Counted from the first letter of the stretch, positions 1 to 32,000 are shown. The stretch is 32,000 bases of DNA from Candidatus Saccharimonas sp. (GCA_015256915.3 CP076101.2:90001-122000); one strand, 5' to 3'. The notes: generated by a model not told the origin, from the letters alone. Numbers and translations: made by a program.

Positions 1-260
1 TGATTAGCTTAAAAATGCTACCGCCACGCCCAGAACGCTATAGAAAACGCCGTTCTTTATGGATGGTTGCGCAGTGGGTTTATATGCCTGTAACTTCAAT
101 ATGTTATAACGCAGCAGCAGCAGCATATTCACAAACTCGTTTAGCATTCGGTAAATATCTTGATAAATTTGATGTTACTGAAAAAGGGCGAATTGAAGAT
201 GTTGAACGTGCGAAGGCTGAAAGAGCTAAAAGACGAGCTTTAAAGAAGCAAAAAAAATAA
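1..260 (+). CDS. C-terminal fragment of a protein that starts upstream of the window; function unknown
   Basis: The reading frame is open from the window edge (frame of nt 3) to TAA at 258-260. The track ORF is 15..260. It ends in a K/R-rich tail (...KRRALKKQKK). No family is recognisable from ~85 visible residues. Confidence 0.4.
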   Translation, partial: ISLKMLPPRPERYRKRRSLWMVAQWVYMPVTSICYNAAAAAYSQTRLAFGKYLDKFDVTEKGRIEDVERAKAERAKRRALKKQKK

Positions 261-480
261 GTACTCTGAAAAGGGTATTTTATTTTTTGGCTTAATATTC
301 ATGAAATTTAAAAGCGGCCAATTTGACCGCCTGATGTAGGAGCATTTGTAAGATTTTCTTAAACCTTACCAAAAAATCGTTTGTCGTTTGGGTGACAAAA
401 GGGAATGTGCCAATATGAATGTAACAGAGGATTACTAGAAAAACTTTCATTTTTTATAGTTTTTTATTTGCCCAAACCTG

Positions 481-516
481 ATTAGACTTTTTCCGAAGTC
501 TAATCTCGTTTTTTAT
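481..516 (+). terminator. Intrinsic terminator-like hairpin with no annotated gene directly upstream
   Basis: 9-bp stem attagactt/aagtctaat (481-489 / 496-504) with a 6-nt loop, followed by ctcgTTTTTTaTTTT. Confidence 0.5.
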
Positions 517-588
517 TTTACAGCGTTTTATTTAAAAAAGCAAGCATAATTACGATATTGAGTGTCTTTTTTTTGAAAGTTAAAAATT

Positions 589-665
589 TTGTTCGCTTTT
601 TAATAAAATTGAGTTTTTGAAAATAAAACATTTCACACGAAAGTCAAACTCAAAAAAGCGAACAA
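589..665. repeat. Long imperfect inverted repeat (hairpin) in a non-coding AT-rich gap
   Basis: Perfect 12-bp arms ttgttcgctttt (589-600) / aaaagcgaacaa (654-665), plus inner 8-bp arms ttgagttt (609-616) / aaactcaa (646-653). Confidence 0.6.
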
Positions 666-820
666 CCCAAAATAAATATCTCACCAAATGAATAAAAATT
701 TTCGAAAGCTAAAAACCAGCTTGTGGAAAAGCTTTGATGGAATGTGTAAAACTAAAAACACCATAACGCTATATGTAGTTAAGAAAAAAAGAACAAAAGT
801 TGTAAAATCTATTGAGTTTT

Positions 821-849
821 TTGCAAAGAAGTTGGTTTTTTGATATAAT
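821..849 (+). promoter_or_regulatory. Sigma70-type promoter with extended -10, upstream of the methyltransferase operon
   Basis: TTGCAA (821-826), a 17-nt spacer, then TGaTATAAT (841-849). Confidence 0.55.
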
Positions 850-853
850 GATA

Positions 854-989
854 GTGTTCTAAAATATTATAAATATAAAGCAGACTTTCGAAAAAGTTAT
901 TTTTTGCGTATTTGAGCCTTAGATAGGGCACTCTACGCGAATCATATTTTGTTGGCTCAATTGGGTCTGCTATAAATATTTTAGAACAC
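854..989 (+). promoter_or_regulatory. Structured 5' leader: long-range inverted repeat enclosing ~100 nt, ending 5 nt before the AAGGAG at 995-1000
   Basis: gtgttctaaaatatt (854-868) is the exact reverse complement of aatattttagaacac (975-989). A second pairing is agcagac (879-885) / gtctgct (965-971). Inner stems are ttgagcc (913-919) / ggctcaa (954-960). The 5' arm starts at the predicted TSS. Confidence 0.5.
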
Positions 990-1059
990 TTCGCAAGGAG
1001 TGTCCTATTTTATTTATAGTAAAAATGAAAATCCTTTTTCGAAAAAGAAAGGATTTTTC

Positions 1060-2004
1060 GTGGCGAATAAAAATCTCACACGAGCAAAAAAGGTCAAAAA
1101 TGATGAATTTTATACACAATACGATGATATTGAGAAGGAGTGTGAAAGGTATCGTGACCAATTTTATGGCAAAATAATTTACTGTAATTGCGACGACCCT
1201 GAAAATAGTAATTTCTTCTTATATTTTGCGAATAATTTTAAGTTTTTTGGCTTAAAGAAACTTATAACCACTCATTATGATTCTGAAAGGCCAACTTATA
1301 AACTGGAACTAACAGAAGAAATGATTGAAGACGGCGCCGTAACTGCTGAATGTGCCAAGAAAACTCTGCTCAAGGGTAACGGAGATTTTCGCAATCAAGA
1401 GAGTATTAAATTATTAAAAGAAGCCGATATAATCATAACTAATCCACCGTTTTCACTTTTTAGAGAATATATCGCTCAATTGATTAAGTATGGAAAGCAA
1501 TTTTTAATTATGGGAAATAATAACTCAATCACCTATAAAGAGATTTTTAAATTAATAAAAGAAAACAAAATTTGGCTTGGTTATGATGTTAATAAAACTA
1601 TGGAGTTTGCTTTAAGTGATAGTTATGAGAAATGGAGTCGTATAGAAAATGGTGTAAAGTATGGAAAAGTTCCTGCAATATCTTGGTTTACGAATCTTGA
1701 AACAGATAAACGCCATCAGGAGTTGATTTTATATAAAAAATATACCGCTGAAGAATTTCCGAAATATGATAATTATGACGCAATTGAAGTTTCGAAAGTT
1801 GTTGATATTCCGCAAGATTATGACGGTGTTATGGGTGTACCAATTACTTTTCTTGATAAATTCAATCCAGATCAATTTGAATTAATAGGCTCTAATCGTT
1901 GGGTTGGTCAAGACGAAGACGGAGTGTATGGTAGAAGTTCGTATTTGAATGGAAAAGAAACTTTTAAAAGGCTATTTATAAAGAATAAGAAAGTGAGTAA
2001 ATAA
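1060..2004 (+). CDS. N6-adenine DNA methyltransferase, M.EcoRI family (gamma-type, NPPF motif)
   Basis: The track ORF is 1000..2004. Recalled M.EcoRI similarity runs along the whole length: KNDEFYTQYDDIEKE, YCNCDDPENSNFF, IIITNPPFSLFREYIAQLIKY, NSITYKEIFKLIKENKIWLG, KYDNYDAIEV, GVMGVPITFLDKFNPDQFELIG. The likely true start is GTG 1060 (MANKNLTRAKK..., matching the M.EcoRI N-terminus), with aaagga 7 nt upstream. Confidence 0.85.
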   Translation: MANKNLTRAKKVKNDEFYTQYDDIEKECERYRDQFYGKIIYCNCDDPENSNFFLYFANNFKFFGLKKLITTHYDSERPTYKLELTEEMIEDGAVTAECAKKTLLKGNGDFRNQESIKLLKEADIIITNPPFSLFREYIAQLIKYGKQFLIMGNNNSITYKEIFKLIKENKIWLGYDVNKTMEFALSDSYEKWSRIENGVKYGKVPAISWFTNLETDKRHQELILYKKYTAEEFPKYDNYDAIEVSKVVDIPQDYDGVMGVPITFLDKFNPDQFELIGSNRWVGQDEDGVYGRSSYLNGKETFKRLFIKNKKVSK

Positions 2005-2006
2005 TT

Positions 2007-3101
2007 ATGAAAATTGAACTTCATAAGATAAAAATCAAAGATATTTTTGAAGGCTATCGAAACAATAATGAAGAAGGTGTTGTTGGCTTTAGCGGAAAGT
2101 TAAATATTCGCCCAAAGTATCAGCGAGAATTTGTTTATGATGATCGCAAACGAAATGCTGTGATTGATACGGTTCGAAAGGGTTTTCCGCTAAATGTGAT
2201 GTATTGGGTGAAAAATTCTGATGGAACTTTTGAAGTTTTAGATGGGCAACAACGAACAATTTCAATTTGTGAATATTTAAATAATAAATTCTCAATTTTG
2301 GATGAAGGAAATCGGAGGAAATTTTTCAATTTGACAGATTTTGAAAAGGAACAGATTAAGAATTATGAATTGATGATTTATTTTTGTGAAGGTAACGATA
2401 AAGAGAAGCTTGACTGGTTTAAAGTCATTAATATTGCTGGCGAAAAGTTAACAGATCAGGAACTTCGTAATGCTATTTATACTGGGGAATGGCTGACGCA
2501 TGCGAAGAGTATTTTTAGTAAAAATAATTGTCCAGCTTGGAATTTAGCAAAAGATTATTTGAACGGTTCGCCAATTCGGCAAGATTATCTTGAAATTGCT
2601 CTTGATTGGATATCGAACGGTGAGATTGAAAAATATATGTCTGAAAATCAGAATAAACAAAACGCAAACGAGCTCTGGTTATATTTTCAAAATGTTATTT
2701 CTTGGGTGAAAATGACATTTATAAATTATCGCAAAGAAATGAAAGGTGTTAATTGGGGTGAGCTATATAATAGATTTAGCAGAGAAAATTTTGATACTAC
2801 TGAAATTGAAAATCGAATTGTTGAATTATTGAAAGATGATGAAGTTACTAAGAAGTCTGGAATTTATAGATATATTTTAACAGGCGAAGAACGTTGGTTG
2901 AGCTTGCGAACTTTTACAGAAAATCAAAAAAGAGAAGCTTACGAGCAACAAAACGGAATTTGTTCGTTATGTGGAGAATATTTTAAGCTCGAAGAAATGC
3001 ATGCCGACCATATTGTGCCGTGGAGTAAGGGTGGTAAAACAGTTATCGAAAATTGCCAAATGCTTTGCATGCAAGATAATATTAAAAAGAGTAATAACTA
3101 A
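2007..3101 (+). CDS. DUF262 (ParB/Srx-like, GmrSD N-terminal type) domain fused to a C-terminal HNH nuclease
   Basis: The N-terminus carries IRPKYQREFVY...VLDGQQRT (DUF262 DGQQR signature). The C-terminus carries CSLCG...HADHIVPWSKGG...NCQMLC...NIKKSN (HNH). The ATG lies 2 nt after the methyltransferase stop, so the genes are coupled. Confidence 0.8.
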   Translation: MKIELHKIKIKDIFEGYRNNNEEGVVGFSGKLNIRPKYQREFVYDDRKRNAVIDTVRKGFPLNVMYWVKNSDGTFEVLDGQQRTISICEYLNNKFSILDEGNRRKFFNLTDFEKEQIKNYELMIYFCEGNDKEKLDWFKVINIAGEKLTDQELRNAIYTGEWLTHAKSIFSKNNCPAWNLAKDYLNGSPIRQDYLEIALDWISNGEIEKYMSENQNKQNANELWLYFQNVISWVKMTFINYRKEMKGVNWGELYNRFSRENFDTTEIENRIVELLKDDEVTKKSGIYRYILTGEERWLSLRTFTENQKREAYEQQNGICSLCGEYFKLEEMHADHIVPWSKGGKTVIENCQMLCMQDNIKKSNN

Positions 3102-3110
3102 AATAAAAAA

Positions 3111-3140
3111 CAGCTTTCGAAAATGAAGGCTGTTTTGATT
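3111..3140. terminator. Intrinsic terminator between the convergent HNH gene and tRNA-Val
   Basis: Stem cagctttc (3111-3118) / gaaggctg (3125-3132), A-tract before and TTTT after. TTCGAA lies at the stem-loop junction. Confidence 0.6.
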
Positions 3141-3147
3141 TTAATTT

Positions 3148-3224
3148 TGGTGGGCGATAGAGGACTCGAACCTCTGACTTTCACAACGTCAATGTGACGC
3201 TCTAGCCAACTGAGCTAATCGCCC
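3148..3224 (-). tRNA. tRNA-Val (anticodon GAC)
   Basis: The reverse complement folds as a canonical cloverleaf: GGGCGAT TA GCTC AGTTGGCTA GAGC G TCACA TTGACGT TGTGA AAGTC AGAGG TTCGAGT CCTCT ATCGCCC A CCA. Confidence 0.9.
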
Positions 3225-3245
3225 GTGGTTTTATTTTAGCAAAGC

Positions 3246-3274
3246 TTGCAAGAAAATTCAAGTGGTGATAAAAT
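3246..3274 (+). promoter_or_regulatory. Promoter of thrS
   Basis: TTGCAA (3246-3251), a 17-nt spacer, then TGaTAAAAT (3266-3274). Confidence 0.45.
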
Positions 3275-3311
3275 AAAAAGAGTTAAAATATTATTTTCGA
3301 AAGGATTTTAA

Positions 3312-5129
3312 GTGGATAATAAAGAAGAAAAACTTTTTAAAATGCGTCACAGCCTTGCGCATATTATGGCGGCAGCAGTTCAGCGAATTTATAAGGACGC
3401 AAAGTTCGGTGTGGGGCCAGCAATCAGTGATGGTTTTTATTATGATATTGATTTAGGCGAAAATAAAATTTCAGAAAAAAACTTTGGAAAAATTGAAAAA
3501 GCTATGCGCCGAATTATTGCTGAAAAGCAAGATTTTGTGCGAAGCGAAGTTTCAATTGAAGAAGCAATTTCTTGGGCAAAAGAAACTAATCAACCATATA
3601 AATTGGAACTCTTGAATGATTTGAAAAATACTGGCACAACAGACGCAAAAATCCTTGCTGAAGGTGATTTTGAGCTTGGCAATGGTGCTGAAACTGTTAG
3701 TTTTTATACTAATGGAAACTATAAGGATTTATGCCGAGGTCCACACCTTTCGAATACTAGCGAAGTTGGCGCTTTTAAATTGATGCGTGTGGCGGGTGCT
3801 TATTGGCGTGGTGATGAGAGAAAACCACAGATGCAACGACTTTATGGTGTGGCTTTTGAAACGCAAGAAGAACTCGATGAATATCTTGAACGAATGGAAG
3901 AAGCCAAAAAACGTGACCATCGTAAACTTGGTAAAGAACTTGATTTGTATACCGTTTCTCCACTTGTTGGCATTGGTTTGCCACTCTTCACGCCGCGTGG
4001 AACAATTTTACGCGATGTTTTAGCAAACTATTCAAATCAATTACGCCAAAAATACGGTTTCGAAAAAGTTTGGACTCCGCACATTACTAAAAAAGATTTG
4101 TATGAAAAATCTGGACACTGGGCTAAATTTGGCGAAGAGCTTTTCTTGGTGAAATCGCAGGTTACTGGTGGTCAATTTGCACTAAAACCAATGAACTGCC
4201 CACATCATACACAGATTTTTGCTTCGAATCCAAGAAGCTACAAAGATTTACCAATCCGTTATCTTGAAACAACAACAGATTATCGTGATGAGCAAACTGG
4301 TGAGCTTGGTGGTTTGAACCGTGTTCGTTCTTTAACACAGGATGATTCGCATATTTTTTGTCGAACTGATCAAATTGAAGGTGAAATTCAAAACTTGTTA
4401 GCTGCTGCCCATGAGCTTTATTCTGGAATTGGAATGAAACTTCGAGTGCGCCTTAGCTATCGTGATGATTCTGATAGCTATCTTGGTGATTTGGCGGTCT
4501 GGGAAAGTGCACAAAATCAGCTTAAGAAAGCGGTTATTTCGAATAATTTAGATTATTTTGAAGAAGAGGGTGAAGCAGCATTTTATGGACCAAAAATCGA
4601 CTTTATGGCAACAGATGCAATTGGTCGTGAACACCAAGTTGCAACGGTTCAGCTTGATTTTGTTCAGCCTGAGCGATTCGAACTTTCATATAAAAATTCT
4701 GAAGGCCAAGATGAACGGCCTGTGATGATTCACTGTGCTTTACTCGGTTCAATTGAGCGGTTTATGAGTGTTTATATTGAGCATAAAGCTGGCTGGTTTG
4801 ATTTTTGGGCAGCTCCTGAGCAAGTTCGAATTTTAACAATCAACGATACTTTAAATGATTACGTTGAAGAAGTTTCGAAGATTCTTTCAGCTACTGTTCT
4901 TGATTCCCCAGTTAGACTCAATGAGATTCGCTATTCGGTAGATGGACGCAATGAATCATTAGGAAAGAAGATTCGTGAGGCAACTGCAATGAAAATCCCG
5001 GTTCAGCTAATTATTGGCCCTAAAGATAAAGAAAATAATGAAGTTAGTGTTCGTTTTCGAAAAAATAGTGAATTCGTTGAAGAAAAAGTTACTCTTCAAG
5101 ATTTAGTGGAATTTATTCGAAAAATATAA
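3312..5129 (+). CDS. thrS: Threonine--tRNA ligase lacking the N-terminal TGS domain
   Basis: 605 aa with a GTG start. It begins at the editing domain (RHSLAHIMAAA, GFYYDIDL). Class II motifs are present: CRGPH, AGAYWRGD, RDHRKLGKEL, PMNCPHH, FHQDDSHIF-like (LTQDDSHIF). Confidence 0.92.
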   Translation: MDNKEEKLFKMRHSLAHIMAAAVQRIYKDAKFGVGPAISDGFYYDIDLGENKISEKNFGKIEKAMRRIIAEKQDFVRSEVSIEEAISWAKETNQPYKLELLNDLKNTGTTDAKILAEGDFELGNGAETVSFYTNGNYKDLCRGPHLSNTSEVGAFKLMRVAGAYWRGDERKPQMQRLYGVAFETQEELDEYLERMEEAKKRDHRKLGKELDLYTVSPLVGIGLPLFTPRGTILRDVLANYSNQLRQKYGFEKVWTPHITKKDLYEKSGHWAKFGEELFLVKSQVTGGQFALKPMNCPHHTQIFASNPRSYKDLPIRYLETTTDYRDEQTGELGGLNRVRSLTQDDSHIFCRTDQIEGEIQNLLAAAHELYSGIGMKLRVRLSYRDDSDSYLGDLAVWESAQNQLKKAVISNNLDYFEEEGEAAFYGPKIDFMATDAIGREHQVATVQLDFVQPERFELSYKNSEGQDERPVMIHCALLGSIERFMSVYIEHKAGWFDFWAAPEQVRILTINDTLNDYVEEVSKILSATVLDSPVRLNEIRYSVDGRNESLGKKIREATAMKIPVQLIIGPKDKENNEVSVRFRKNSEFVEEKVTLQDLVEFIRKI

Positions 5130-5132
5130 AGT

Positions 5133-6017
5133 ATGAGAAATAACACTTTAGTTATAATCACTGGCCCGACTGCAAGCGGTAAGACGAGCTTGGCTATAAA
5201 ATTAGCCAAGCTTTTTGGCGGTGAGATTATTTCTGCTGATTCACGTGCGATTTATAAAGATATTAATATTGCTTCTGCAAAACCAACGATTAAGGAGCAA
5301 GAAGGTGTTATGCATTGGGGCTTTGATTTAGTTGAGCCCGGAGAGCGTTTTACTGCAGCAGATTTTAAGGAATATACCTATGCTAAGATTGATGATATTT
5401 TAGATCGTGGTAAAATTCCATTTTTAGTTGGTGGAACTGGATTATATATTGATGCGGTTTTATATGATTATAACTTTGGTGGTGAAGTTGATGATGATTT
5501 TCGAAAAGGCCTGAACCAGAGAACTGTCGAAGATCTACAAAAGTATATTTTTGAAAATAAAATTGAAATGCCAGAAAATAATAAGAATAAGCGATATCTA
5601 ATTCGATCAATAGAAAAAAGCATAAGCGAAAAGGGTAAAAGTTGTAAAAAACACAATAAGTATAATAATATTGTTGTAGGAATAACAACTAATCGCGAAG
5701 AACTACGAGAAAAAATCTTTAAAAGAAATGAGCATTTTTTTATCTCTGGAATAATTGAAGAATACAAAAAAGTTGAACAGAAATATGGCCCAAATTCTGA
5801 AGCAATGACAGCAAATGCTTATCCGTTAATTCGAAATTTTTTGAATGGAGAATTGGATGAAAAGGAACTTATTGATAAGATGTCTGTGCGGGATTGGAGA
5901 TTGGCTAAAAGACAGATAACTTTTATGAAGAGAAATAAAGATATAGTGTGGCTTGATTTAAAAGATGCTGAACAATTTATTATTTCGAAAATTAATAAAT
6001 GTATAAAAAAGTTGTAA
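5133..6017 (+). CDS. miaA: tRNA dimethylallyltransferase
   Basis: P-loop ITGPTASGKTSLAI, then ISADSRAIYKDINIASAKPT and LVGGTGLYI. It starts 3 nt after the thrS stop. Confidence 0.85.
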   Translation: MRNNTLVIITGPTASGKTSLAIKLAKLFGGEIISADSRAIYKDINIASAKPTIKEQEGVMHWGFDLVEPGERFTAADFKEYTYAKIDDILDRGKIPFLVGGTGLYIDAVLYDYNFGGEVDDDFRKGLNQRTVEDLQKYIFENKIEMPENNKNKRYLIRSIEKSISEKGKSCKKHNKYNNIVVGITTNREELREKIFKRNEHFFISGIIEEYKKVEQKYGPNSEAMTANAYPLIRNFLNGELDEKELIDKMSVRDWRLAKRQITFMKRNKDIVWLDLKDAEQFIISKINKCIKKL

Positions 6018-6058
6018 AAGGTCTAGTTGATTTTTGAAAAATATGGTAAAATAGATTT

Positions 6059-6673
6059 ATGGAACAGAGTATAAATGCACTATTTGGCTCAAAAACGAGG
6101 GTTAAACTTTTAAACCTATTTTTCAATAGTCCAGAAGAGAAGTTTTATGTTCGTGAAATATCGCGAATTATTGATGAACAAGTTAACTCTGTTCGGAGAG
6201 AACTAACCAATCTTGAAAGTGTTGGCATCGTAAAAAACTCAACAGAAGATAGGAAGATTTTCTATCAAGCGAACCAGAGGTTTAAATACTACCTTCCGCT
6301 AAGGGCGATTTTTGCTGGAGTTAAAATGAACGAGAGTGTTTCTGTTGATAAAAAAATATCTTCTATAGATAGATGGCAGTCTGAAGTTGAAAATATTCAA
6401 AAGCAAATAGATATTCTTGTATTATTTGGAGTTTTCGTTGATGATGTGGATTCGGATATTGATATGTTGATAGTTGGAAATAACCAGGATAAAAAGCTTT
6501 CGAATTGGGCTTCAGATATTGAGAAGAAAGAAGGCCGTGAGCTAAACTATATGATTTTATCTATGGAAGATTTTTATTATCGATACACTACGCAAGATAC
6601 CTTTATGAAAGGGTTATTTAAAAATAATTACAAAATAGTCTTTGATAAAGAGAATATACTTGAAAAATTATAA
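6059..6673 (+). CDS. Winged-helix (ArsR-like) DNA-binding protein with a C-terminal nucleotidyltransferase-like region
   Basis: N-terminus LFGSKTRVKLLNLFF...YVREISRII...NSVRRELTNLESVGIV. C-terminus DSDIDMLIVG. The ATG lies 6 nt after a TGgTAAAAT -10 element, so the mRNA is probably leaderless. Confidence 0.6.
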   Translation: MEQSINALFGSKTRVKLLNLFFNSPEEKFYVREISRIIDEQVNSVRRELTNLESVGIVKNSTEDRKIFYQANQRFKYYLPLRAIFAGVKMNESVSVDKKISSIDRWQSEVENIQKQIDILVLFGVFVDDVDSDIDMLIVGNNQDKKLSNWASDIEKKEGRELNYMILSMEDFYYRYTTQDTFMKGLFKNNYKIVFDKENILEKL

Positions 6674-6685
6674 TGGGAGTAAAAA

Positions 6686-7324
6686 ATGTTTGATATTGAA
6701 TATAAGGGTGCAAACAGTATCGTAATTTCTACAAAAAAGATTTCATTAATAACTGATCCTAAACATTCTATTTTTGGTGACAAAGATTTAGTTATTAAAG
6801 AAGGGGTTGAGCTTGCCACTGAGGAGAGGTTTAAAACTAGTAATGAAGATTTTAAGCTTTCAATATCCTATCCTGGAAGTTATGAAGTGTCAGATTTTAC
6901 TATAAATGGTTATCAAGAAAAACGGCATATTGATGAAGACAAGGATGGTGAAAAATCTGTAATTTATAGTGTTGAAGTTTGTGGTGTTAGAATTGGTATT
7001 TTGGGAAATATTGACCCAAATTTATCTGATGACCAGCTTGAGAACCTTGGTGTTTTGGATATTTTAGTTTTACCGATTGGTGGTGGCGGATATACTCTAG
7101 ATGTAACAGCTGCGGCAAATATTGCTAGAAGATCTGATGCGAAAATAATTATTCCTGTTCATTATGCTGATGATGGGATTAACTACGAAGTTCCTCAATC
7201 TGATTTTGCGCTTTTCGAAAAAGAACTAGGTGTTGATGTTGAAAAAACTACAAAGTATAAAGTGAAATCAGCTACAAGTTTACCTGAGAAAATGACAATA
7301 GTTAAAATTGAACGGACAAAATAA
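6686..7324 (+). CDS. MBL-fold (Lactamase_B_3-like) hydrolase homologue, metal motif apparently degenerate
   Basis: IEYKGANSIVISTKK..LITDP at the N-terminus and DILVLPIGGGGYTLD..AA...AKIIIPVHY at the C-terminus resemble UPF0173-type MBL proteins. No HxHxDH motif was seen. Confidence 0.5.
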   Translation: MFDIEYKGANSIVISTKKISLITDPKHSIFGDKDLVIKEGVELATEERFKTSNEDFKLSISYPGSYEVSDFTINGYQEKRHIDEDKDGEKSVIYSVEVCGVRIGILGNIDPNLSDDQLENLGVLDILVLPIGGGGYTLDVTAAANIARRSDAKIIIPVHYADDGINYEVPQSDFALFEKELGVDVEKTTKYKVKSATSLPEKMTIVKIERTK

Positions 7325-7333
7325 TATTTTTTA

Positions 7334-7367
7334 AAGAGCTAATCTTTCGAAGATAGGCTCTTTTTTA
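7334..7367 (+). terminator. Intrinsic terminator after the MBL-like gene
   Basis: agagc(t)aatctt-cg-aagat(a)ggctct followed by TTTTTT. TTCGAA forms the apex. Confidence 0.65.
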
Positions 7368-7371
7368 TATA

Positions 7372-7400
7372 AGAAAAAACCCACAAAATTGTGGGAATTT
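7372..7400 (-). terminator. Intrinsic terminator of rpmB (minus strand)
   Basis: cccacaa (7380-7386) / ttgtggg (7389-7395), with a T-tract on the minus strand (the aaaaaa at 7374-7379 on the plus strand). Confidence 0.6.
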
Positions 7401-7418
7401 TCTTTTGAGATAAAAATA

Positions 7419-7607
7419 TTATAGAATACCTTTTTTCTTCAAAGTTCGGATAGCTGCGGTGCTCAAATTTAGTCGAACTTTTTTACCATCAATAATAATA
7501 GTTTTCTTTTGGATGTTTGGCTTAAAAGTTCGTTTTGTGCGTCGCAATGAAAAGCTAACGTTGTTTCCGTGTTGCTTTCCTTTTCCTGTTAAATCACATA
7601 CTGCCAT
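7419..7607 (-). CDS. rpmB: 50S ribosomal protein L28
   Basis: MAVCDLTGKGKQHGNNVSFSLRRTKRTFKPNIQKK... The track ORF (to 7673) carries a 22-aa non-homologous extension. The conserved start is the ATG at 7607. Confidence 0.88.
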   Translation of the reverse strand: MAVCDLTGKGKQHGNNVSFSLRRTKRTFKPNIQKKTIIIDGKKVRLNLSTAAIRTLKKKGIL

Positions 7608-7673
7608 TTTAACTCTCTTTACTTTAATATTTACAATCTGTTCCATTATAACGTATTTTTTAAAAAAGGTCAA

Positions 7674-8324: not shown

Positions 8325-8371
8325 AATTTAAAACACTGGATTTTTATTTTAAAAATTGGTATAATTAAAGT

Positions 8372-8515
8372 AAGCCCTGCTGGCGAATGATTTTTCCTGA
8401 ATAATCATTTATAAAGGAACTCCAAACGATGATCTACTATCGTGGTAGTAGGTTGAGGAGGTATCCACCGTATAATTTTATGCGGGGAAAATATCAAAGT
8501 TGGCGGGGCTTTTTA
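8372..8515 (+). ncRNA. Unclassified small structured RNA (~140 nt) with its own promoter and terminator-like 3' end
   Basis: An extended -10 TGgTATAAT (8357-8365) lies 7 nt upstream. A closing stem joins agccctgct (8373-8381) and ggcggggct (8502-8510, two G-U pairs), followed by TTTTT. Internal hairpins are aatgatt/aatcatt, ctacta/tagtag and ccgtata/tatgcgg. There is no ORF. Confidence 0.4.
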
Positions 8516-8542
8516 TATTTGTTGAAATTTGATATAATAGAA

Positions 8543-8866: not shown

Positions 8867-8876
8867 TAATTTTAAA

Positions 8877-8912
8877 CTAAAAATCACACCTCTTTCGAAA
8901 GTGTGATTTTTA
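8877..8912. terminator. Bidirectional terminator between rnpB (+) and rplT (-)
   Basis: atcacac (8882-8888) / gtgtgat (8900-8906), flanked by AAAAA and TTTTT. The loop carries TTTCGAAA. Confidence 0.65.
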
Positions 8913-8927
8913 GTTTTTATTGAAGAA

Positions 8928-9269: not shown

Positions 9270-9270
9270 A

Positions 9271-9468
9271 TTATTTTACTCCCAATGCTCGTTTAATATT
9301 TTTAGCCATTGCTCCTTCTACAGTTGCAGTGGTGTTAATTCGTCGTTTTCGACTTTTGCTTTTCTTGGAAAGCATGTGGTTCTTAAAGGCCCGACGGCGT
9401 ACTACTTTGCCGCTTCCAGTAAGCTTCATTCGCTTTGCTGTGCCCTTATGTGTTTTTAATTTAGGCAT
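9271..9468 (-). CDS. rpmI: 50S ribosomal protein L35
   Basis: [33 protein letters not shown]... Confidence 0.95.
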
Positions 9469-10065: not shown

Positions 10066-11571
10066 TTAATTTTCATTTTTATGACGATATTGTAAAGCTT
10101 CGCTAATGTGATTTACTTTAATATCTTTTGATGAATTAAGGTCTGCGATTGTGCGCGAAACTTTAAGTATCTTTAGAAATGCTCGAGCGGATAGGTCAAG
10201 CCTTGATGTTGCTAAATTTAATAGATCTTCAGCTTCTTTCGAAATATTAAATCTATTTTTTACATCATTAGTTTTAACCATACTGTTGTATAAATTACTG
10301 CAATCATAACGCTTATGCTGTAATTCTAACGACATCTCTATCTGTTTTTTAGCATTAGCATGTTCAGAATTTTGATTGTTATTCTTTGAAAGAAGATTTT
10401 TGTTATGTATTCTATCAACATTAACAACCATATCAATTCTATCCATTAACGGTCCAGAAAGCTTTCTTTGGTAATTAAGAATTTGTGTGGATGAACAAGT
10501 GCATTCTTTTGTTGTGTCTCCATAAAAACCACAAGGGCAGGGGTTCATTGTTGCAATAAGCATAAAATTTGCAGGATAAGAGCTTTTTCGATTTGTGCGA
10601 GTTATGGTTATTTTTCTATCTTCTAACGGCTGCCGTAAGCTTTCGAGTATAGATTTGGGGAATTCTGGCATTTCGTCTAAAAATAGAACACCATTGTGTG
10701 CTAGACTAATCTCGCCAGGTAAAGCTTTCGAACCGCCTCCAATTATGGAAACTTTACTTGCGGTATGATGTGGCGTGCGAAAAGGCCTCAAAATATTTGA
10801 GTTAATTTCATCAACTAAACCGTGAATTTTTAAAACTTCTAATAACTCACTTTTCGAAAGCGGTGGCAGTAGATTTAAGGCGGCTTGGGCAAGCATTGTT
10901 TTTCCTGTTCCTGGAGGGCCAGTTAGTAGTATATTGTGCCTTCCAGCTATCGCGATAGTTAGAGCTCTTTTTGCTTGTTCTTGACTGATAATATCATCGA
11001 GAATAATGCCATCGTTATTATCTTTAAAAGTGTTAATATTTTCTTCATTTTTTATTATTTTTTCATTTTTAAGATGAAGAAAAATATCTTTAAGATTTCT
11101 TGCGCCAATTAATTTTACACCGTCTATTATTGAGCTTGTTCCTAAATTTTCAATAGGTAAGAAAATTTCTTTAATTCCGTGGCTTCGAAGTTTTTCGACA
11201 ATATTGATAATACCTTTAATTGGTCTAAGATCTCCATTTAGTGATAACTCGCCAACAAATACGCGGGATTTTAATTCGTGCTGCTTTAGTTGGTTTGAGA
11301 GCGTTAAAATCGAAATTGCAATAGGTAGGTCGAAAAAAGTTCCGTCTTTTGGAATTTCTGCAGGTGCTAAATTGATGATAATTTTCTTAGCAGGGAAATC
11401 TAACATTGAGTTTTTAATTGCGCTTCGAACTCGCTCTTTTGCTTCATCGATTGCTTTATTTCCCATTCCAACAATTTGTAGGCTTGGTAATCCTTTCGAA
11501 GAATCTCCTTCCACCTCAATAATCTCTGCTTCATAGCCAATTGGTGCGGCTGATATAACTTTACTCACCAT
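10066..11571 (-). CDS. comM: YifB/ComM family Mg-chelatase-like AAA+ ATPase (competence-associated)
   Basis: Lon-protease-like N-terminal domain (IIEVEGDSSKGLPSLQIVGMGNKAIDEAKERV). Walker A LTGPPGTGKTM. GVLFLDEMPEF. Cys cluster NPCPCGFYGD..C.C. C-terminal SARAFLKILKVSRTIADL. Confidence 0.88.
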   Translation of the reverse strand: MVSKVISAAPIGYEAEIIEVEGDSSKGLPSLQIVGMGNKAIDEAKERVRSAIKNSMLDFPAKKIIINLAPAEIPKDGTFFDLPIAISILTLSNQLKQHELKSRVFVGELSLNGDLRPIKGIINIVEKLRSHGIKEIFLPIENLGTSSIIDGVKLIGARNLKDIFLHLKNEKIIKNEENINTFKDNNDGIILDDIISQEQAKRALTIAIAGRHNILLTGPPGTGKTMLAQAALNLLPPLSKSELLEVLKIHGLVDEINSNILRPFRTPHHTASKVSIIGGGSKALPGEISLAHNGVLFLDEMPEFPKSILESLRQPLEDRKITITRTNRKSSYPANFMLIATMNPCPCGFYGDTTKECTCSSTQILNYQRKLSGPLMDRIDMVVNVDRIHNKNLLSKNNNQNSEHANAKKQIEMSLELQHKRYDCSNLYNSMVKTNDVKNRFNISKEAEDLLNLATSRLDLSARAFLKILKVSRTIADLNSSKDIKVNHISEALQYRHKNEN

Positions 11572-11634: not shown

Positions 11635-12013
11635 GGGGCTGAATTAGCTTTAGACAAGAGGAATTTAACAGTTTGGCTTGCAAGTCGTTTACTGCGTAAA
11701 GTATTAAATAAATGCAAAAAACTTTGCAGCTAAAGTTGCAGCATTCTTTGCTCCAGCTTCAGCACCAGTTGCTGCTTAATTTTATTGGCAACCATTTTTC
11801 GAAATGGGGCAGTGTGTATTTCGAAAAGTGTCATATTTTTTTCACTGATAGCTTAAAATTTTCGCGATAAATTTTAAGTGAGATTTTTTTCGCAACTTTT
11901 AATATATTTTTGTTGATTTTTTAAGTATTAAATTTTAACCAAAATTGACTAAACTTGTAGAAGGCTAAAATGTTACCTTTTGGACCCGAGGGCAGTTCTC
12001 GGCAGCTCCACCA
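11635..12013 (+). ncRNA. ssrA: tmRNA (SsrA), tag peptide AKNFAAKVAAFFAPASAPVAA
   Basis: The 5' GGGGCTG pairs with 3' CAGCTCC-A-CCA (G3-U70 alanine identity). T-arm ccgag/ctcgg. The tag reading frame runs from GCA 11714 to TAA 11777-11779 (21 codons) and ends in the ...VAA typical of SsrA tags. A TGaTATAAT promoter sits at 11614-11622. Confidence 0.9.
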
Positions 12014-24398: not shown

Positions 24399-24559
24399 CT
24401 AGGGAGAGTTATGCCAAAGGTTTGAGAAATCAACCTTTGAAGCTAGGTCGGTCTTTTCGAAAGTTTCTGTAAATTTTACTTTCGAATTTAGCCTTCTAAA
24501 GGTAAGACTAAAATTTACCACAGATTGAGATAGATTGCACAATTAAATTGTTAAAACTA

Positions 24560-24590
24560 AATAGCCTTTCGAAAGATTGGCTATTTTTAT
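24560..24590 (+). terminator. Intrinsic terminator directly after the 16S processing stem
   Basis: aatagcc (24560-24566) / ggctatt (24579-24585), followed by TTTTT. The loop contains TTTCGAAA. Confidence 0.6.
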
Positions 24591-24607
24591 TAATAAGAAA
24601 AAAACTC

Positions 24608-24636
24608 TTGCATTTTATTAATAAATAATATATACT
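24608..24636 (+). promoter_or_regulatory. Promoter in front of the spacer tRNAs
   Basis: TTGCAT (24608-24613), a 17-nt spacer, then TATACT (24631-24636). It shares the aaaactcttgcatt...aataatatata...tagtatt module with the promoter at 24914. Confidence 0.5.
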
Positions 24637-24658
24637 ATTATAGTATTCGTTAAAATCT

Positions 24659-24733
24659 GGGGATATAGCTCAGTTGGCTAGAGCACCTGTTTGTAAGCAG
24701 GGGTCCAGGGTTCGAGTCCCTGTATCTCCACCA
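24659..24733 (+). tRNA. tRNA with alanine-type acceptor (G3-U70, A73) but a non-canonical anticodon arm (UGU or GUA instead of UGC)
   Basis: GGGGATA TA GCTC AGTTGGCTA GAGC A [CCTG TTTGTAAG CAGG] GGTC CAGGG TTCGAGT CCCTG TATCTCC A CCA. The acceptor, D and T arms are canonical. The anticodon arm has 16 nt instead of 17. Confidence 0.7.
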
Positions 24734-24786
24734 AAGAAAGCTTTTGAATATTTTTCGAAAGTTCTCTTTGGCAAAAAGCCGAATAT

Positions 24787-24863
24787 GGGCGATTAGCTCA
24801 GCTGGTTAGAGCGCGTCACTGATAATGACGAGGTCGGAGGTTCAAGTCCCTCATCGCCCACCA
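24787..24863 (+). tRNA. tRNA-Ile (anticodon GAT)
   Basis: GGGCGAT TA GCTC AGCTGGTTA GAGC G CGTCA CTGATAA TGACG AGGTC GGAGG TTCAAGT CCCTC ATCGCCC A CCA. Confidence 0.95.
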
Positions 24864-24865
24864 TA

Positions 24866-24890
24866 GAACTCCCAAGAGGGAGTGTTTTTA
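24866..24890 (+). terminator. Intrinsic terminator after tRNA-Ile
   Basis: actccc (24867-24872) / gggagt (24877-24882), followed by gTTTTTaTTTT. Confidence 0.6.
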
Positions 24891-24913
24891 TTTTGTAAAA
24901 CTTTTAAAAACTC

Positions 24914-24942
24914 TTGCATTCAAATGTAAAATAATATATAAT
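24914..24942 (+). promoter_or_regulatory. Upstream (P1-like) promoter of the 23S-5S unit
   Basis: TTGCAT (24914-24919), a 17-nt spacer, then TATAAT (24937-24942). Confidence 0.5.
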
Positions 24943-25048
24943 AGTATTTACTTAGCGAACGTTCATCCTGAACCTCTCAGGAGAGAATATTTATTAAATC
25001 AGTAGAAAATGCATTTTAATAGAAAATAAATAAAATTGCAAAAAACTA

Positions 25049-25077
25049 TTGACAAAAAATATTCAAAAATATATAAT
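25049..25077 (+). promoter_or_regulatory. Downstream (P2-like) consensus promoter of the 23S-5S unit
   Basis: TTGACA (25049-25054), a 17-nt spacer, then TATAAT (25072-25077). Confidence 0.6.
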
Positions 25078-25253
25078 AGTAAAGCGTTTAAGATCAGGAT
25101 AGTGAGTTCGAATCTTTCGAAAGTTGAACTTATGGTTTTGCTCTTAAAATGGGAGCGAGAAATTTAACAATTTGGTGATGTAAAAGAAGATAAGAATTTA
25201 AGATTGACGGCAAGTATTGGTTGTTACCAATTACTAGTTAAGTCAATGCATAA

Positions 25254-28346
<3,093 letters not shown>

Positions 28347-28537
28347 GTCCATATTCATTAAAATAATCTTGTATTATTGGCGTGAATATGGTAGACTTAA
28401 CTAGTGTTTGGTGATTATCAAAGATAATCGCTAGTCAATCTAAAATCTTGGCATTACCAAATGATACCAAGGACATCGAAATGAGGTTTTGGCTCACCGC
28501 TTAGGAATTTGTGGCGAGTTGAAGCGCAAAACCTTTT

Positions 28538-29459: not shown

Positions 29460-29509
29460 TAAAACATAATCAAAAATAGATTAGATTTTAATAAAACAAA
29501 GGAGATTAA

Positions 29510-29761
29510 ATGGCCGGAACAAAGGCGGGCGGCGCAAAGGCAGCTGCAACTAATAAAGCAAAATATGGAAAAGATTTTTATTCACGAATTGGGCAAAAAG
29601 GCGGTAAAAATGGAACAACTGGTGGATTTGCTGCAAACCGTGAACTTGCAAAAATTGCGGGGCAAAAGGGCGGTCGAATTAGCCGCCGTGGTCCAGCTAC
29701 AACAAAGATTCCAATGACTGAAGAGTCTGAAGAATCAAAAATTGAAGTTCGTGTAGCTTAA
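29510..29761 (+). CDS. KGG-repeat general stress protein (YciG/GsiB-like)
   Basis: Repeated ...GQKGGKNG.., GGFAANRELAKIAGQKGG... motif. An AAGGAG SD lies 7 nt upstream. Confidence 0.8.
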   Translation: MAGTKAGGAKAAATNKAKYGKDFYSRIGQKGGKNGTTGGFAANRELAKIAGQKGGRISRRGPATTKIPMTEESEESKIEVRVA

Positions 29762-29774
29762 AAAGTATACAAAT

Positions 29775-29810
29775 AAAATCACGCTTTCGAAATATTGCGT
29801 GATTTTATTT
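29775..29810. terminator. Bidirectional terminator between convergent genes
   Basis: aaaatcacgc (29775-29784) / gcgtgatttt (29797-29806). The loop contains TTTCGAAA. Confidence 0.65.
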
Positions 29811-30262
29811 TATTTTATTTTTCGCCGCAAACTTTTAAAACGAGAATCATTATTTTGCCAGATAGTTCCGCAAGCGGGGCATTTATATGTTAAATCTTTT
29901 TGTTGAAAACCATTTAGTTTGCATTTTGGGCAGAGGCTTCTTTTATGTAGCCAATCTCGGTAAGTGTCAAGCTTGCTTTCAGCTAAATTTGAACTAAAAC
30001 AAAATCCATATTGACTTACAAGGTTATTTTGAACGAACTCCCAAGCTTCAGACTCCATCTTAAGTAGTTCAATATCAAGCCAAAAATCTTCGTGGCCAAG
30101 CAGTGCGTGAGCTAATTCATGCAAAATTAACAGATGAAAATTTGAAGATTCTGGTTCGAAAAAAATTGTATTTTCTTTCTTTGACCAATAGAAATCATCA
30201 CTTTCTTCGAAATTGAATTGAGGAAAGTCTTTGCGCAATTTTTCGACAAATTCTAAATTCAT
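29810..30262 (-). CDS. Small HExxH zinc metallopeptidase-like protein (SprT/ImmA-like) with a C-terminal CxxC...CxxC zinc ribbon
   Basis: LILHELAHALLGH motif. CPKCK...YKCPACG ribbon. The start overlaps the stop of the ROK gene (TAATG). Confidence 0.6.
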   Translation of the reverse strand: MNLEFVEKLRKDFPQFNFEESDDFYWSKKENTIFFEPESSNFHLLILHELAHALLGHEDFWLDIELLKMESEAWEFVQNNLVSQYGFCFSSNLAESKLDTYRDWLHKRSLCPKCKLNGFQQKDLTYKCPACGTIWQNNDSRFKSLRRKIK

Positions 30263-31086
30263 TAAAAATTCAATGCCTCTTTTGCAAATTCAAAACAGCC
30301 ATAAATAACTGCTTCGCGCGGTTTTTGAGCTTTAACGATTTTTGGGCAAGAAATCCCTTCGGGCAGATTTTCGCGAACAATTTGTTCTAGAAAAAGATCG
30401 AATTTTTTAAAATTTTCACCAAGGCTACCACCAATAATAATTAACTCTGGCTGAATTATTGGAATTATCACTAAAAATCCGCGTGAAATTCTATCTGCAA
30501 TATTTTGCCATTGTCGTGGTTTTGAAATCTCGCTCGCATATTTACCATAAACATTAAAAATTGCTCGTGCACTTGCAAATTCTTCCCACTCTCGCACTCG
30601 GCCATCAAATTCAATTGGAATTCTCCCAATTTCGCTATTTTTTAGGCCTTGGTTGATTTTTCCATCTGTTATTATGCCTGAACCAACTCCCGTTGAAAGT
30701 GTAATATAAAGAATATTTTGAGCTTTATTTTTGAATTTTTTACTTTCAAAAAGCCCAGCAAGATTGGCGTCATTTTCAACTAAAATTTTAATATTTGGAA
30801 ATATTTTTGAAAGTTCAGCTTTTACATTAAAATTCTGCCAACGTAAATTTTTTGCCCACAAAATTACACCGTTTTCAATAATTCCAGGTTCGGCACAAGA
30901 AATTGCTTGGATTTCACCCGATTTCAGTTGTTCCGAAAATTCTTTTTTAATAACTTTTTCAATAATTTCAAGATATTTTTGCTGAGATTTTGGCGTTTGA
31001 AATTCGAAAGATTTTAAAAGTTTACCTTCTTTCGAAAATCCTGCTAATAAAGTTTTTGTTCCACCCGTATCAATTGCAATAATCAT
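30262..31086 (-). CDS. ROK-family sugar kinase (glucokinase-like), without the usual Cys zinc motif
   Basis: MIIAIDTGGTKT (phosphate-1), ENDANLAGL, LSTGVGSGII, IIIGGSL. The CxCGxxGC motif was not seen. Confidence 0.82.
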   Translation of the reverse strand: MIIAIDTGGTKTLLAGFSKEGKLLKSFEFQTPKSQQKYLEIIEKVIKKEFSEQLKSGEIQAISCAEPGIIENGVILWAKNLRWQNFNVKAELSKIFPNIKILVENDANLAGLFESKKFKNKAQNILYITLSTGVGSGIITDGKINQGLKNSEIGRIPIEFDGRVREWEEFASARAIFNVYGKYASEISKPRQWQNIADRISRGFLVIIPIIQPELIIIGGSLGENFKKFDLFLEQIVRENLPEGISCPKIVKAQKPREAVIYGCFEFAKEALNF

Positions 31087-31134
31087 AACTCTATTTTACG
31101 ATGAAAAAAATAAAAATTCAACCTTTTAAAACGC

Positions 31135-31163
31135 TTGATTTTTTTAGCTCAAAATGTTAAAAT
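31135..31163 (+). promoter_or_regulatory. Promoter of rpsA
   Basis: TTGATT (31135-31140), a 17-nt spacer, then TGtTAAAAT (31155-31163). Confidence 0.45.
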
Positions 31164-31238
31164 GGTAACAATCTATTGGGCAGGTTAATTTTAGCTATGT
31201 TCAAAGAAATACAATTAAGGAAGGAGTCTTAAAGACTA

Positions 31239-32000
31239 ATGGCAACAGCCAAAAAAATAACAATGGACGAATTGTTGGCGTCTGCTCCAGAGAGCGTAAA
31301 CCAACTAAATCAAGGCGAAACTGTTGAGGGAACAATTCTTTCAGTTCGCAAACACGAGATTTTAATTGACCTAGGAGCGAAAGGTGTTGGATTTGTCCCT
31401 CGCCGAGAAGCTGGTCATTCAAAGAACCTTGTTGAAGGTGAAACAGTAACAGCAAGCGTTGTTGACACTGAAATGGACAACGGAATGTCGTTGCTTTCTC
31501 TTCGAAAAGCTGCAAAAGATCGCGGTTGGGAAGAAGTTATCGAAAAGATGGAAAAAGGCGAAATTATCGAAATTATTCCATTTGATGCTAACCGAGGTGG
31601 TTTGCTAGTTGAATATGAAGGAATTCGCGGATTCTTGCCTGTTTCTCAACTTTCAGCAGAACACTACCCACGCGTTGGTGCAAGTGATAAAGATGAGATT
31701 TTGAGCCGATTGAATGCGCTTATTGATAAGCCAATTAGTGTTCGAATTCTTGATGCGGATCGTAAAACTAATAAACTTATCTTCAGCGAAAAAGAAGCTA
31801 TCAAAGATGGTTTAAACGAACGATTTGACAGCTTGAAGATTGGAGATGAAGTTGAAGGTGTTGCGACTGGCGTTGTAGATTTTGGCGTTTTTGTAAATAT
31901 TGAAGGAATTGAAGGTTTGGTCCACATTTCTGAAATTTCTTGGGAACGCGTAAATAATCCAAAAGATTATGTAAAAATCGGTGACACAATTAAGGCAAAA
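31239..32000 (+). CDS. rpsA: 30S ribosomal protein S1, 5' part (runs off the window end; absent from the ORF track)
   Basis: My own translation from ATG 31239 is stop-free to nt 32000 (254 codons). It shows S1-domain repeats: GETVEGTILSVRKHEILIDLGAKGVGFVPRRE, GEIIEIIPFDANRGGLLVEYEGIRGFLPVSQL, GDEVEGVATGVVDFGVFVNIEGIEGLVHISEISWERV. AAGGAAGGAG lies upstream. Confidence 0.88.
   Translation, partial: MATAKKITMDELLASAPESVNQLNQGETVEGTILSVRKHEILIDLGAKGVGFVPRREAGHSKNLVEGETVTASVVDTEMDNGMSLLSLRKAAKDRGWEEVIEKMEKGEIIEIIPFDANRGGLLVEYEGIRGFLPVSQLSAEHYPRVGASDKDEILSRLNALIDKPISVRILDADRKTNKLIFSEKEAIKDGLNERFDSLKIGDEVEGVATGVVDFGVFVNIEGIEGLVHISEISWERVNNPKDYVKIGDTIKAK

Follow-up and report, generated by a model that had tools for sequence, protein, structure and literature searches.

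Lineage-specific over-representation of the palindrome TTCGAA in Candidatus Saccharimonas, and its possible relation to highly iterated palindromes and DNA uptake sequences

A TTCGAA-rich locus in Candidatus Saccharimonas

The DNA stretch of Candidatus Saccharimonas sp. considered here (GCA_015256915.3, CP076101.2:90001-122000; 32,000 nt, hereafter the window) encodes thrS, miaA, infC, comM, gyrB and gyrA, along with an rRNA operon and the genes for RNase P RNA and tmRNA, and is densely populated by the palindromic hexamer TTCGAA, which is the subject of this report. The closest relatives of the window by GyrB sequence are uncultured 'Candidatus Saccharimonas' metagenome-assembled genomes, belonging to the Saccharibacteria, a part of the Candidate Phyla Radiation (CPR). 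The analysis covers two linked neighbourhoods, amounting to ~45-50 kb of a ~1-Mb genome, in ~15 genomes of the lineage.

A pattern search and a separate recount both place 80 copies of TTCGAA in the window, 27 of which form part of the 8-mer TTTCGAAA. Both counts agree with those of an earlier reading made by a model from the sequence alone (the sequence-only reading), in which 79 of the 80 start positions were exact and one was shifted by a single base (8894, not 8893). Base composition predicts 10.6 copies, giving an observed/expected ratio (O/E0) of 7.6, in line with the ~7-fold excess over 10-12 predicted copies that had been estimated, and the eye counts of control words likewise lay close to the computed values (ATCGAA 16, TTCGAT 13, CTCGAA 10 and GAATTC 11). 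None of 100 dinucleotide-preserving shuffles reached 80 copies (mean 19.0, maximum 31), while Markov models of order 1, 2 and 3 predict 19.4, 29.1 and 43.7 copies, respectively, the ratio at order 1 (O/E1) being 4.1. A Markov ratio near 1 had been named in the sequence-only reading as an argument against the excess, and at the maximal order (order 4; 70.8 expected) the ratio does fall to 1.13; this test is, however, circular and uninformative, because 80 of the 113 occurrences of TTCGA and 80 of the 114 occurrences of TCGAA fall within TTCGAA itself. Two independent nulls, codon shuffling and the sister-genome comparison, decide the matter.

Shuffling of synonymous codons, which preserves the protein sequence and the codon usage, predicts 17.4-17.7 sites (sd 3.5-3.7) in the 23 coding sequences (CDSs) of the window, where 61 are observed (z 11.6-12.4). 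The sites occupy all three codon phases, as had been proposed (13, 25 and 23 sites against ~6 expected in each), and CDSs, intergenic DNA and RNA genes carry 2.9, 3.1 and 0.53 sites/kb, respectively (O/E0 8.6, 9.3 and 2.1). Codon or dipeptide usage as the cause is ruled out by the synonymous-codon and whole-codon shuffles. The excess in the window is real and lies at the level of the DNA rather than of codons or dipeptides; the proposal that it concerns the DNA word itself and ignores the reading frame is upheld by the codon-shuffle z of ~12, by the enrichment of all three phases and of intergenic DNA, and by the ~10-fold lower level in sisters of equal GC content described below. TTCGAA is the sole outlier among the 64 palindromic hexamers in the window. 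The second palindromic hexamer is the HindIII site AAGCTT, with 32 copies (O/E0 3.0), of which 22 fall in CDSs against 10.5 under codon shuffling (z 3.9).

The distribution over the RNA genes is as the sequence-only reading described it, with one site in the 16S rRNA gene, none in the 23S and 5S rRNA genes, six in the rRNA spacers and two inside ssrA (Table 1). It had further been stated that the word sits in most intrinsic terminators. TTCGAA does occur at or near the apex of five strong hairpins followed by T-runs, but 'most' is an overstatement, since several other terminator-like hairpins are without it.

Table 1. Features of the 32,000-nt window that bear on the TTCGAA excess, in order of position
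Feature	Coordinates	Strand	Details
TTCGAA site field, ~2.5/kb, near zero within rRNA genes	1..32000	.	starts: 701, 887, 1038, 1791, 2173, 3116, 3296, 3749, 4059, 4223, 4538, 4677, 4825, 4874, 5056, 5116, 5500, 5830, 5984, 6499, 7214, 7346, 8894, 9665, 9883, 9959, 9991, 10238, 10727, 10853, 11184, 11424, 11495, 11798, 11820, 12348, 12548, 13154, 13392, 13780, 13947, 14308, 14525, 15211, 15319, 15426, 15524, 16003, 16060, 16815, 17083, 17301, 17461, 17831, 18427, 18629, 18953, 19802, 20892, 20987, 21184, 21691, 22165, 22311, 22501, 23521, 24456, 24481, 24568, 24754, 25107, 25116, 29200, 29786, 30155, 30206, 31003, 31031, 31501, 31741
Type II restriction-modification (R-M) cassette, adjoining tRNA-Val	791..3146	+	open reading frames (ORFs) 1000-2004 and 2007-3101
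EcoRI-family N6-adenine methyltransferase ORF	1000-2004	+	PF13651 E 2e-116; PADLOC MTase_II E 8e-113, full length
DUF262/GmrSD_N-HNH restriction enzyme ORF	2007-3101	+	PADLOC REase_II E 2e-142, full length
Hairpin and T-run, TTTCGAAA at loop edge, 3' of the R-M cassette	3099..3143	+	dG -17.6 kcal/mol, site 3116
Terminator-like hairpin and T-run, TTCGAA centred on apex	7333..7363	+	dG -12.6 kcal/mol, site 7346
Hairpin and T-run, TTTCGAAA in loop, between RNase P RNA gene and convergent rplT	8874..8916	.	dG -18.3 kcal/mol, site 8894
comM/yifB, Mg-chelatase-like AAA ATPase	10066..11571	-	occurs in non-enriched relatives too
Two TTCGAA sites 22 bp apart within the tmRNA gene	11798..11825	+	pattern search
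Six TTCGAA sites in rRNA spacers, ~7/kb spacer	24456..25121	.	flanking mature 16S 1, 23S 0
Hairpin and T-run, TTTCGAAA in loop, 16S-tRNA spacer	24548..24596	+	dG -15.2 kcal/mol, site 24568
Hairpin and T-run, TTTCGAAA in loop, between convergent ORFs	29771..29810	.	dG -16.0 kcal/mol, site 29786

The excess is confined to a single lineage

The phylogenetic limits of the excess were drawn from a gyrB set of 80 loci, one per species, from a thrS-centred metagenome scan and from contigs found via homologues of the window methylase. O/E values outside the clade were surveyed in 76 gyrB and 59 thrS loci of at least 4 kb, and pooled counts refer to a clade pool (the window, L009, L081, L086, L087, L091 and L092) and a sister pool (L102-L110, L119 and L145). 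Only four of the 80 gyrB loci are enriched, and these are the four closest to the window (98-99% GyrB identity, 36% GC, O/E0 5.5-8.9). Every locus in the thrS scan with a ThrS identity of at least 83.5% is enriched, with 1.3-4.3 sites/kb, as are the contigs recovered through the methylase homologues (76-84% DNA identity to the window, 35-41% GC, 1.3-4.3 sites/kb), while ten sister Saccharibacteria loci with 69-74% ThrS identity and 34-40% GC carry 0.14-0.47 sites/kb and are not enriched. The enriched loci comprise 4 from the gyrB set, 18 carrying the R-M cassette and 3 from the thrS scan, all with O/E0 values of 4.2-13.3. Most non-clade gyrB and thrS loci have O/E0 values below 1.5, the few at 2-4 being for the most part GC-rich loci with few sites or accounted for at the dinucleotide level, and no sister locus of the Saccharibacteria in either set attains the density of the clade.

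Pooled density is 2.45-2.57/kb at 37.2% GC in the clade versus 0.25/kb at 37.4% GC in the sisters, so that the comparison with sister genomes which the sequence-only reading had recommended yields ~10-fold fewer TTCGAA at equal GC. Low GC content or drift towards AT is thereby ruled out as the cause. The excess is specific to one gut/sewage lineage of the Saccharimonadaceae, where it stands at ~10 times the level of the nearest relatives. Because sisters of equal GC are without it, the trait is to be regarded as a young, lineage-specific acquisition and not as a by-product of AT-richness, and on the thrS comparisons its origin appears to fall after the split at ~73% versus 84% identity. Clade and sisters also differ in their wider k-mer content at equal GC: CpG stands at 43.7 versus 34.5 per kb, GCGA/TCGC and GCGC are 1.6- and 1.8-fold higher in the clade, words with A/T runs are more frequent and TA-containing words (TAATAA, ATAGTA, AGATAA) are less so.

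Among the genes near thrS and gyrB, nothing clade-specific was found except the R-M cassette and two small ORFs, the pilins being too divergent to inform. The small ORFs (12206-12436 and 16585-16893, encoding 76 and 102 aa on the minus strand) are matched by homologues in L009, a member of the clade, and they have no homologue in the syntenic sister Saccharibacteria loci and no family match. A scan of IMG/VR for TTCGAA-dense viral contigs gave nothing related to the clade among the matches listed, at least 120 in number. A few of these (L296, and also L242 and L280) show a dispersed, moderately high TTCGAA density and have no detectable homology to the clade; L296, an IMGVR_UViG contig, contains 17 sites in 12.1 kb (43% GC, O/E0 4.6).

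Anatomy and spacing of the word

The signal is the exact hexamer, with sharp edges and a weak T/A preference at the ±1 positions. A is found at +1 (T at -1) at 57% of 379 sites versus a baseline of ~40% after GAA elsewhere; the flanks hold 0.21 bit at ±1 and at most 0.03 bit farther out, and the top-ranked 8-mers of the clade pool all include TTCGAA, TTTCGAAA having an O/E of 27. Relative to the sisters, TTCGAA is enriched 9.9-fold in the clade, [not T]TCGAA 4.7-fold, CGAA lacking the other half's T 1.5-fold and TCGA without both outer bases (VTCGAB) 1.08-fold. Among words one substitution removed from TTCGAA, enrichment versus sisters is highest for those with a changed outer base (3.6-8.2-fold), while TTTGAA and TTCAAA have O/E0 values of 2.4 and 2.1 and stand at 2-3 times the sister level. 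Within the genome, codon shuffling gives z values of 0.2 for TTTGAA, 2.3 for TTCAAA, 1.7 for CTCGAA, -1.0 for TTCGAG, -1.4 for ATCGAA, 0.0 for TTCGAT, 1.2 for GTCGAA and 0.0 for TTCGAC. Counts per kb have a variance/mean ratio of 0.39-0.93 in five of seven loci and of 1.04 and 1.62 in the other two; spacing within the window shows at most a weak tendency to evenness, which is not significant (Kolmogorov-Smirnov (KS) p = 0.16).

Gain, loss and retention of sites

Opposite a TTCGAA, relatives carry near-miss hexamers, mostly TTTGAA or TTCAAA (16 of 23 cases at 95% identity), and a gap is seen at only 1 of 37 variable sites; judged from these alignments, the word spreads by point substitution and not by insertion. 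Where sisters share the peptide, in seven conserved genes, they encode it at the sites with different synonymous codons (CGT/CGC for Arg, TTT-GAA, TCT, AGC), and many sites match conservative replacements, Lys to Arg(CGA) being an example. Sites come and go quickly, for the most part via CpG transitions. The shared-site index of TTCGAA versus that of all hexamers is 0.84 versus 0.76 at 95.5% DNA identity, 0.56 versus 0.39 at 84% and 0.36 versus 0.24 at 77%, placing it at rank 188 of 430, 63 of 377 and 62 of 178 words, respectively. Set against gene- and phase-matched hexamers, the conserved sites number 51 versus 45.2, 29 versus 21.8 and 11 versus 7.9 (z 1.8, 2.0 and 1.3).

Polarisation with outgroups yields 3 gains, all from TTTGAA, and 7 losses, and with so few events the test of rates is weak. 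CpG transitions account for 4 losses at 60 sites and 3 gains at 24, set against general CpG rates of 9.3% and 10%, a comparison of low power, and transitions predominate throughout these genomes. Taken together, the density is kept up in every branch of the clade while sites are continually replaced, and the sites do not represent ancient conserved elements.

A mobile restriction-modification cassette within the clade

The R-M cassette in the window, overlooked in the sequence-only reading, is found in many genomes of the clade (besides the window, L081, L084, L086-L098 and L180) at one fixed site, flanked by a glycosyltransferase gene and tRNA-Val/thrS, and is absent from all six sister thrS loci examined. 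Its methylase is 49% identical to its closest characterised relative, the genuine M.EcoRI (GAATTC), which adjoins R.EcoRI on an E. coli plasmid, and the same two-gene module is found on a Chryseobacterium plasmid; solved structures and the literature yielded nothing useful on the specificity of the methylase or the nuclease. The alleles in the clade are 64-97% identical and are mosaics of at least three internal and at least five C-terminal versions of variable regions, which are the likely specificity determinants, so that the alleles probably differ in specificity. Between the window and L081 the cassette is 92-97% identical while the flanks are 72-85% identical; it therefore moves between diverged members of the clade, and this transfer demonstrates gene flow among them. 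The cassette is pseudogenised in L092 and L093 and cleanly absent from L099, L100 and L101, where ~115-140 bp stand in place of window positions 791-3146. A vertically fixed cassette, as the shared site in many genomes might imply, is ruled out by its absence from genomes that are 95% identical to the window, by the mosaicism and by horizontal exchange.

It might be supposed that this cassette recognises TTCGAA and causes the excess, as no other sizeable gene content in the ~45 kb under comparison is found in the clade, the deepest sampled branches included, and lacking in the six sister loci, and as its site is always the same. Enrichment is, however, equal whether a genome carries the window allele, a 64%-identical one, a pseudogenised cassette or none at all; L099-L101 hold 2.9 sites/kb, and the hosts of all alleles are enriched despite the probable differences in specificity. 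Horizontal movement within the clade and the occurrence on a Chryseobacterium plasmid speak against the idea, as do the relationship with a GAATTC methylase and the fact that R-M targets are normally avoided rather than accumulated. A causal role for the cassette is very unlikely; it is probably not the cause because it is missing from genomes that are 95% identical and equally rich in TTCGAA, and it behaves like any variable R-M island, being mobile, mosaic and probably unrelated to the excess.

Comparison with known over-represented words

To our knowledge, the 30-year puzzle of hyper-abundant exact palindromes has been confined to the cyanobacteria, and no more than two families of Proteobacteria are known to have uptake sequences. 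The highly iterated palindrome (HIP) HIP1, GCGATCGC, is reportedly to be traced to Robinson 1995. TTCGAA was compared with HIP1 and the alternative HIPs of cyanobacteria (Elhai 2015, PMC4390886; Xu et al. 2018, PMC5861425), and it resembles them in being a short exact palindrome which is the most over-represented word, exceeds one copy per gene, is present in every frame as well as in non-coding DNA, arises by substitution rather than insertion and is lineage-specific. In comparison with relatives, variants one substitution away favour the outer positions, as Elhai described for HIP1, and methylation and transformation are both implicated. The description of a HIP applies as regards over-representation, frame independence and spread by substitution, and at most weakly as regards conservation, which is reported to be clear by Xu et al. 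(PMC5861425). TTCGAA differs further in its length of 6 bp (weakly 8) versus 8 bp for HIP1, in being an AT-rich word in a 37% GC genome, in its enrichment (4-10-fold, or 27-fold for the 8-mer, versus 15-300-fold), in its occurrence in a narrow clade of CPR bacteria (Saccharibacteria) rather than a phylum such as the cyanobacteria, and in that no cognate orphan methyltransferase was identified in the ~45-50 kb inspected.

With the DNA uptake sequences (DUS) and uptake signal sequences (USS) of Neisseria and the Pasteurellaceae, TTCGAA shares its character of a hyper-abundant, clade-specific 'dialect' in a lineage with naturally competent cultivated relatives, its tolerance at the softer coding positions, its presence in terminator hairpins and a turnover of sites rather than strict conservation. 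Uptake sequences are, however, non-palindromic, 9-12 nt long and enriched 100-1000-fold, and TTCGAA lacks such an asymmetric core; in Neisseria the receptor, ComP, is known, and there the terminator stem is formed by inverted pairs of the sequence, whereas here a single palindrome lies in the loop. The excess of CCWGG and deficit of CTWGG produced by Dcm and Vsr in E. coli are comparable in that a methylase target is in excess and C/T transitions occur at the sites, but here the words expected from deamination are not depleted and the excess exceeds that of E. coli by far. The targets of the type II R-M enzymes AsuII, BstBI and NspV are the identical hexamer, recognised with the same sharp specificity; such targets are usually avoided in the host genome, and the sole R-M system within reach does not co-vary with the excess.

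A possible DNA-level drive and its rivals

The reading favoured here, with a probability of roughly 0.38, is that TTCGAA is the product of a HIP1/USS-like drive at the DNA level, exerted by a lineage-specific factor and plausibly linked to natural transformation; this factor and the link to transformation are the parts that we infer. The exact 6-bp word would be written wherever constraint allows, i.e. at synonymous or conservatively replaceable positions, in intergenic DNA, in terminator loops and in rRNA spacers. A lineage-specific protein, encoded outside the window, would recognise precisely this hexamer, either in dimeric form or as type II enzymes do, and would influence the persistence of alleles, most plausibly in the course of natural transformation, where word-bearing DNA, possibly methylated, might be preferentially taken up or recombined, resulting in a molecular drive analogous to that of USS and DUS. 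The link to transformation is favoured because relatives are transformable via ComEC (comEC-dependent natural transformation has been demonstrated in cultivated Saccharibacteria; PMC10633639), because competence genes flank the region, and because of the USS/DUS-like hallmarks and the analogy with HIP1, whose association with methylation-dependent enhancement of transformation is reviewed in bioRxiv 10.64898/2026.06.24.733823. In L081 genes for PilC, PilD and pilins make up a type IV pilus operon at a distance of 6.5-10 kb upstream of the R-M cassette, and the gene flow seen at the cassette between diverged members of the clade also favours this reading. A stricter version, in which a naturally competent CPR lineage uses TTCGAA (or TTTCGAAA) as a tag for self-recognition or uptake, possibly read only when methylated, is put forward more tentatively. 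If correct, it would represent the first uptake-type sequence in the Patescibacteria and the first that is palindromic and resembles a restriction site, and would unite the HIP and DUS phenomena outside the cyanobacteria and Proteobacteria.

Several observations weigh against such a drive. The added retention of sites is only ~30% above matched controls (z 1.3-2.0 per comparison), and the polarised 3 gains and 7 losses cannot be told apart from general CpG rates, so that, at low power, no drive was measured directly. The sequence-only reading had adduced comM as pointing to uptake, an argument that falls away because the gene is present in the same synteny in relatives that are not enriched; pilus genes, too, are shared with non-enriched relatives. 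The ~45-50 kb inspected yielded no factor that would recognise the word. The word is a palindrome of 6-8 bp enriched 4-10-fold (27-fold for the 8-mer), set against the 9-12 nt, asymmetry and 100-1000-fold enrichment of uptake sequences, and its short, restriction-site-like shape is better matched to a methyltransferase or other dimeric reader than to a pilin receptor. The genome-wide extent suggested here is, moreover, extrapolated from two linked neighbourhoods.

The main rival, which we consider unlikely though not negligible, is a repair ratchet directed by methylation, following Elhai's model for HIP, in which a solitary TTCGAA or TCGA methyltransferase encoded elsewhere would mark the word and methyl-directed mismatch repair would resolve heteroduplexes towards the methylated, site-bearing strand, with no role for uptake. 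An exact, sharp-edged 6-bp palindrome is typical of recognition by type II methyltransferases, N6-methyladenine methylation of TTCGAA occurs in nature (bioRxiv 10.64898/2026.06.24.734251), the alternative HIPs of cyanobacteria each co-occur with a matching methyltransferase (PMC4390886), and the 3.6-8.2-fold enrichment versus sisters of words altered at the outer positions echoes the pattern Elhai described. On the other hand, the same words stand at codon-shuffle expectation within the genome, no asymmetry in CpG rates was detected (at low power), and no such methyltransferase was seen in ~45-50 kb, the sole one there being the variable R-M allele, which is absent from equally enriched genomes. 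Far less credible, and the least probable of the explanations weighed, is a short-patch repair akin to Dcm/Vsr, raised in the sequence-only reading together with a check for depletion of TTTGAA and TTCAAA, in which a 5-methylcytosine (m5C) methylase acting on TTCGAA and a T:G nickase would convert TTTGAA/TTCAAA heteroduplexes to TTCGAA. Most differences between relatives at the sites are indeed C/T or G/A changes at the central CpG, but transitions dominate everywhere in these genomes and the CpG transition rates at the word match the general rates, again at low power. TTTGAA and TTCAAA are not depleted (z 0.2 and 2.3), which argues against a drive of the Vsr type, as do their O/E0 values and elevation over the sisters, and a search of the 32-kb window for a Vsr homologue or an m5C methylase found none.

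A neutral, context-dependent mutation bias peculiar to the lineage, arising for instance from a lost or altered repair or polymerase function and leaving the word without a function, is improbable. It would fit the broader k-mer shift of the clade, in which CpG in K-CG-M contexts and A/T runs are commoner and TA steps rarer, as well as the fast turnover and modest positional conservation of the sites and the lack of a detected difference from general CpG rates. Related words and half-sites would then be expected to rise too, but the excess within the genome is limited to the exact palindrome, and the 1.08-fold change in VTCGAB contrasts with 9.9-fold for TTCGAA; the sites are, moreover, retained somewhat better than matched hexamers, and exact 6-bp palindromic specificity is not known for mutational spectra. 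Slightly more improbable still is a dense array of binding sites for a dimeric protein, specific to the lineage, that organises the nucleoid or chromosome, with selection for sites that cover the chromosome evenly. A palindromic hexamer would suit such a protein, per-kb counts are under-dispersed in five of seven loci and a structural role has been proposed for HIP1 (PMC5861425), yet two loci are not under-dispersed, the spacing in the window does not depart significantly from chance, the graded extended consensus usual for helix-turn-helix dimers is lacking, and the region inspected held no candidate protein.

Full-text literature searches returned no HIP-like or uptake motif described in the Saccharibacteria or the CPR. 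The TTCGAA case represents an independent origin, and a young one, of what is known from these other groups, here in an epibiotic bacterium of ultra-small size. With so unusually clean a contrast to sisters of equal GC, the gene responsible could be named by phyletic profiling across a few dozen genomes of ~1 Mb. Should the word promote uptake or recombination, correctly methylated TTCGAA in donor DNA could ease the genetic manipulation of this uncultivated gut lineage and perhaps of other CPR bacteria, and the density of BstBI/AsuII sites offers a simple enzymatic handle on the methylation state of the lineage in metagenomic DNA.

Other features of the window

Between comM/tmRNA and gyrBA, positions 12752-17627 encode a 975-aa coupling ATPase of the TraD/TrwB/HerA type with small flanking ORFs. 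The order comM-ATPase-gyrB is kept across the Saccharibacteria at 50-62% identity and is consistent with a patescibacterial system resembling a type IV secretion system. Matches to sigma-70-like promoters number 89 in the left half of the window (1-16000) against 56.3 ± 6.8 in shuffles, with no excess in the right half (41 versus 39.6). The tRNA at 24659-24733, between the 16S rRNA gene and tRNA-Ile, has the G3:U70 alanine identity pair and an abnormal anticodon loop of 6 or 8 nt (CCTGT-TTGTAA-GCAGG), for which ARAGORN returns the anticodon '??'; read with a 7-nt loop, the anticodon would be UGU. The match to 23S rRNA (25251-28347) spans 3097 nt versus the 2925 positions of the model, suggesting an insertion of ~170 nt, and insertions are often reported in the rRNAs of CPR bacteria.

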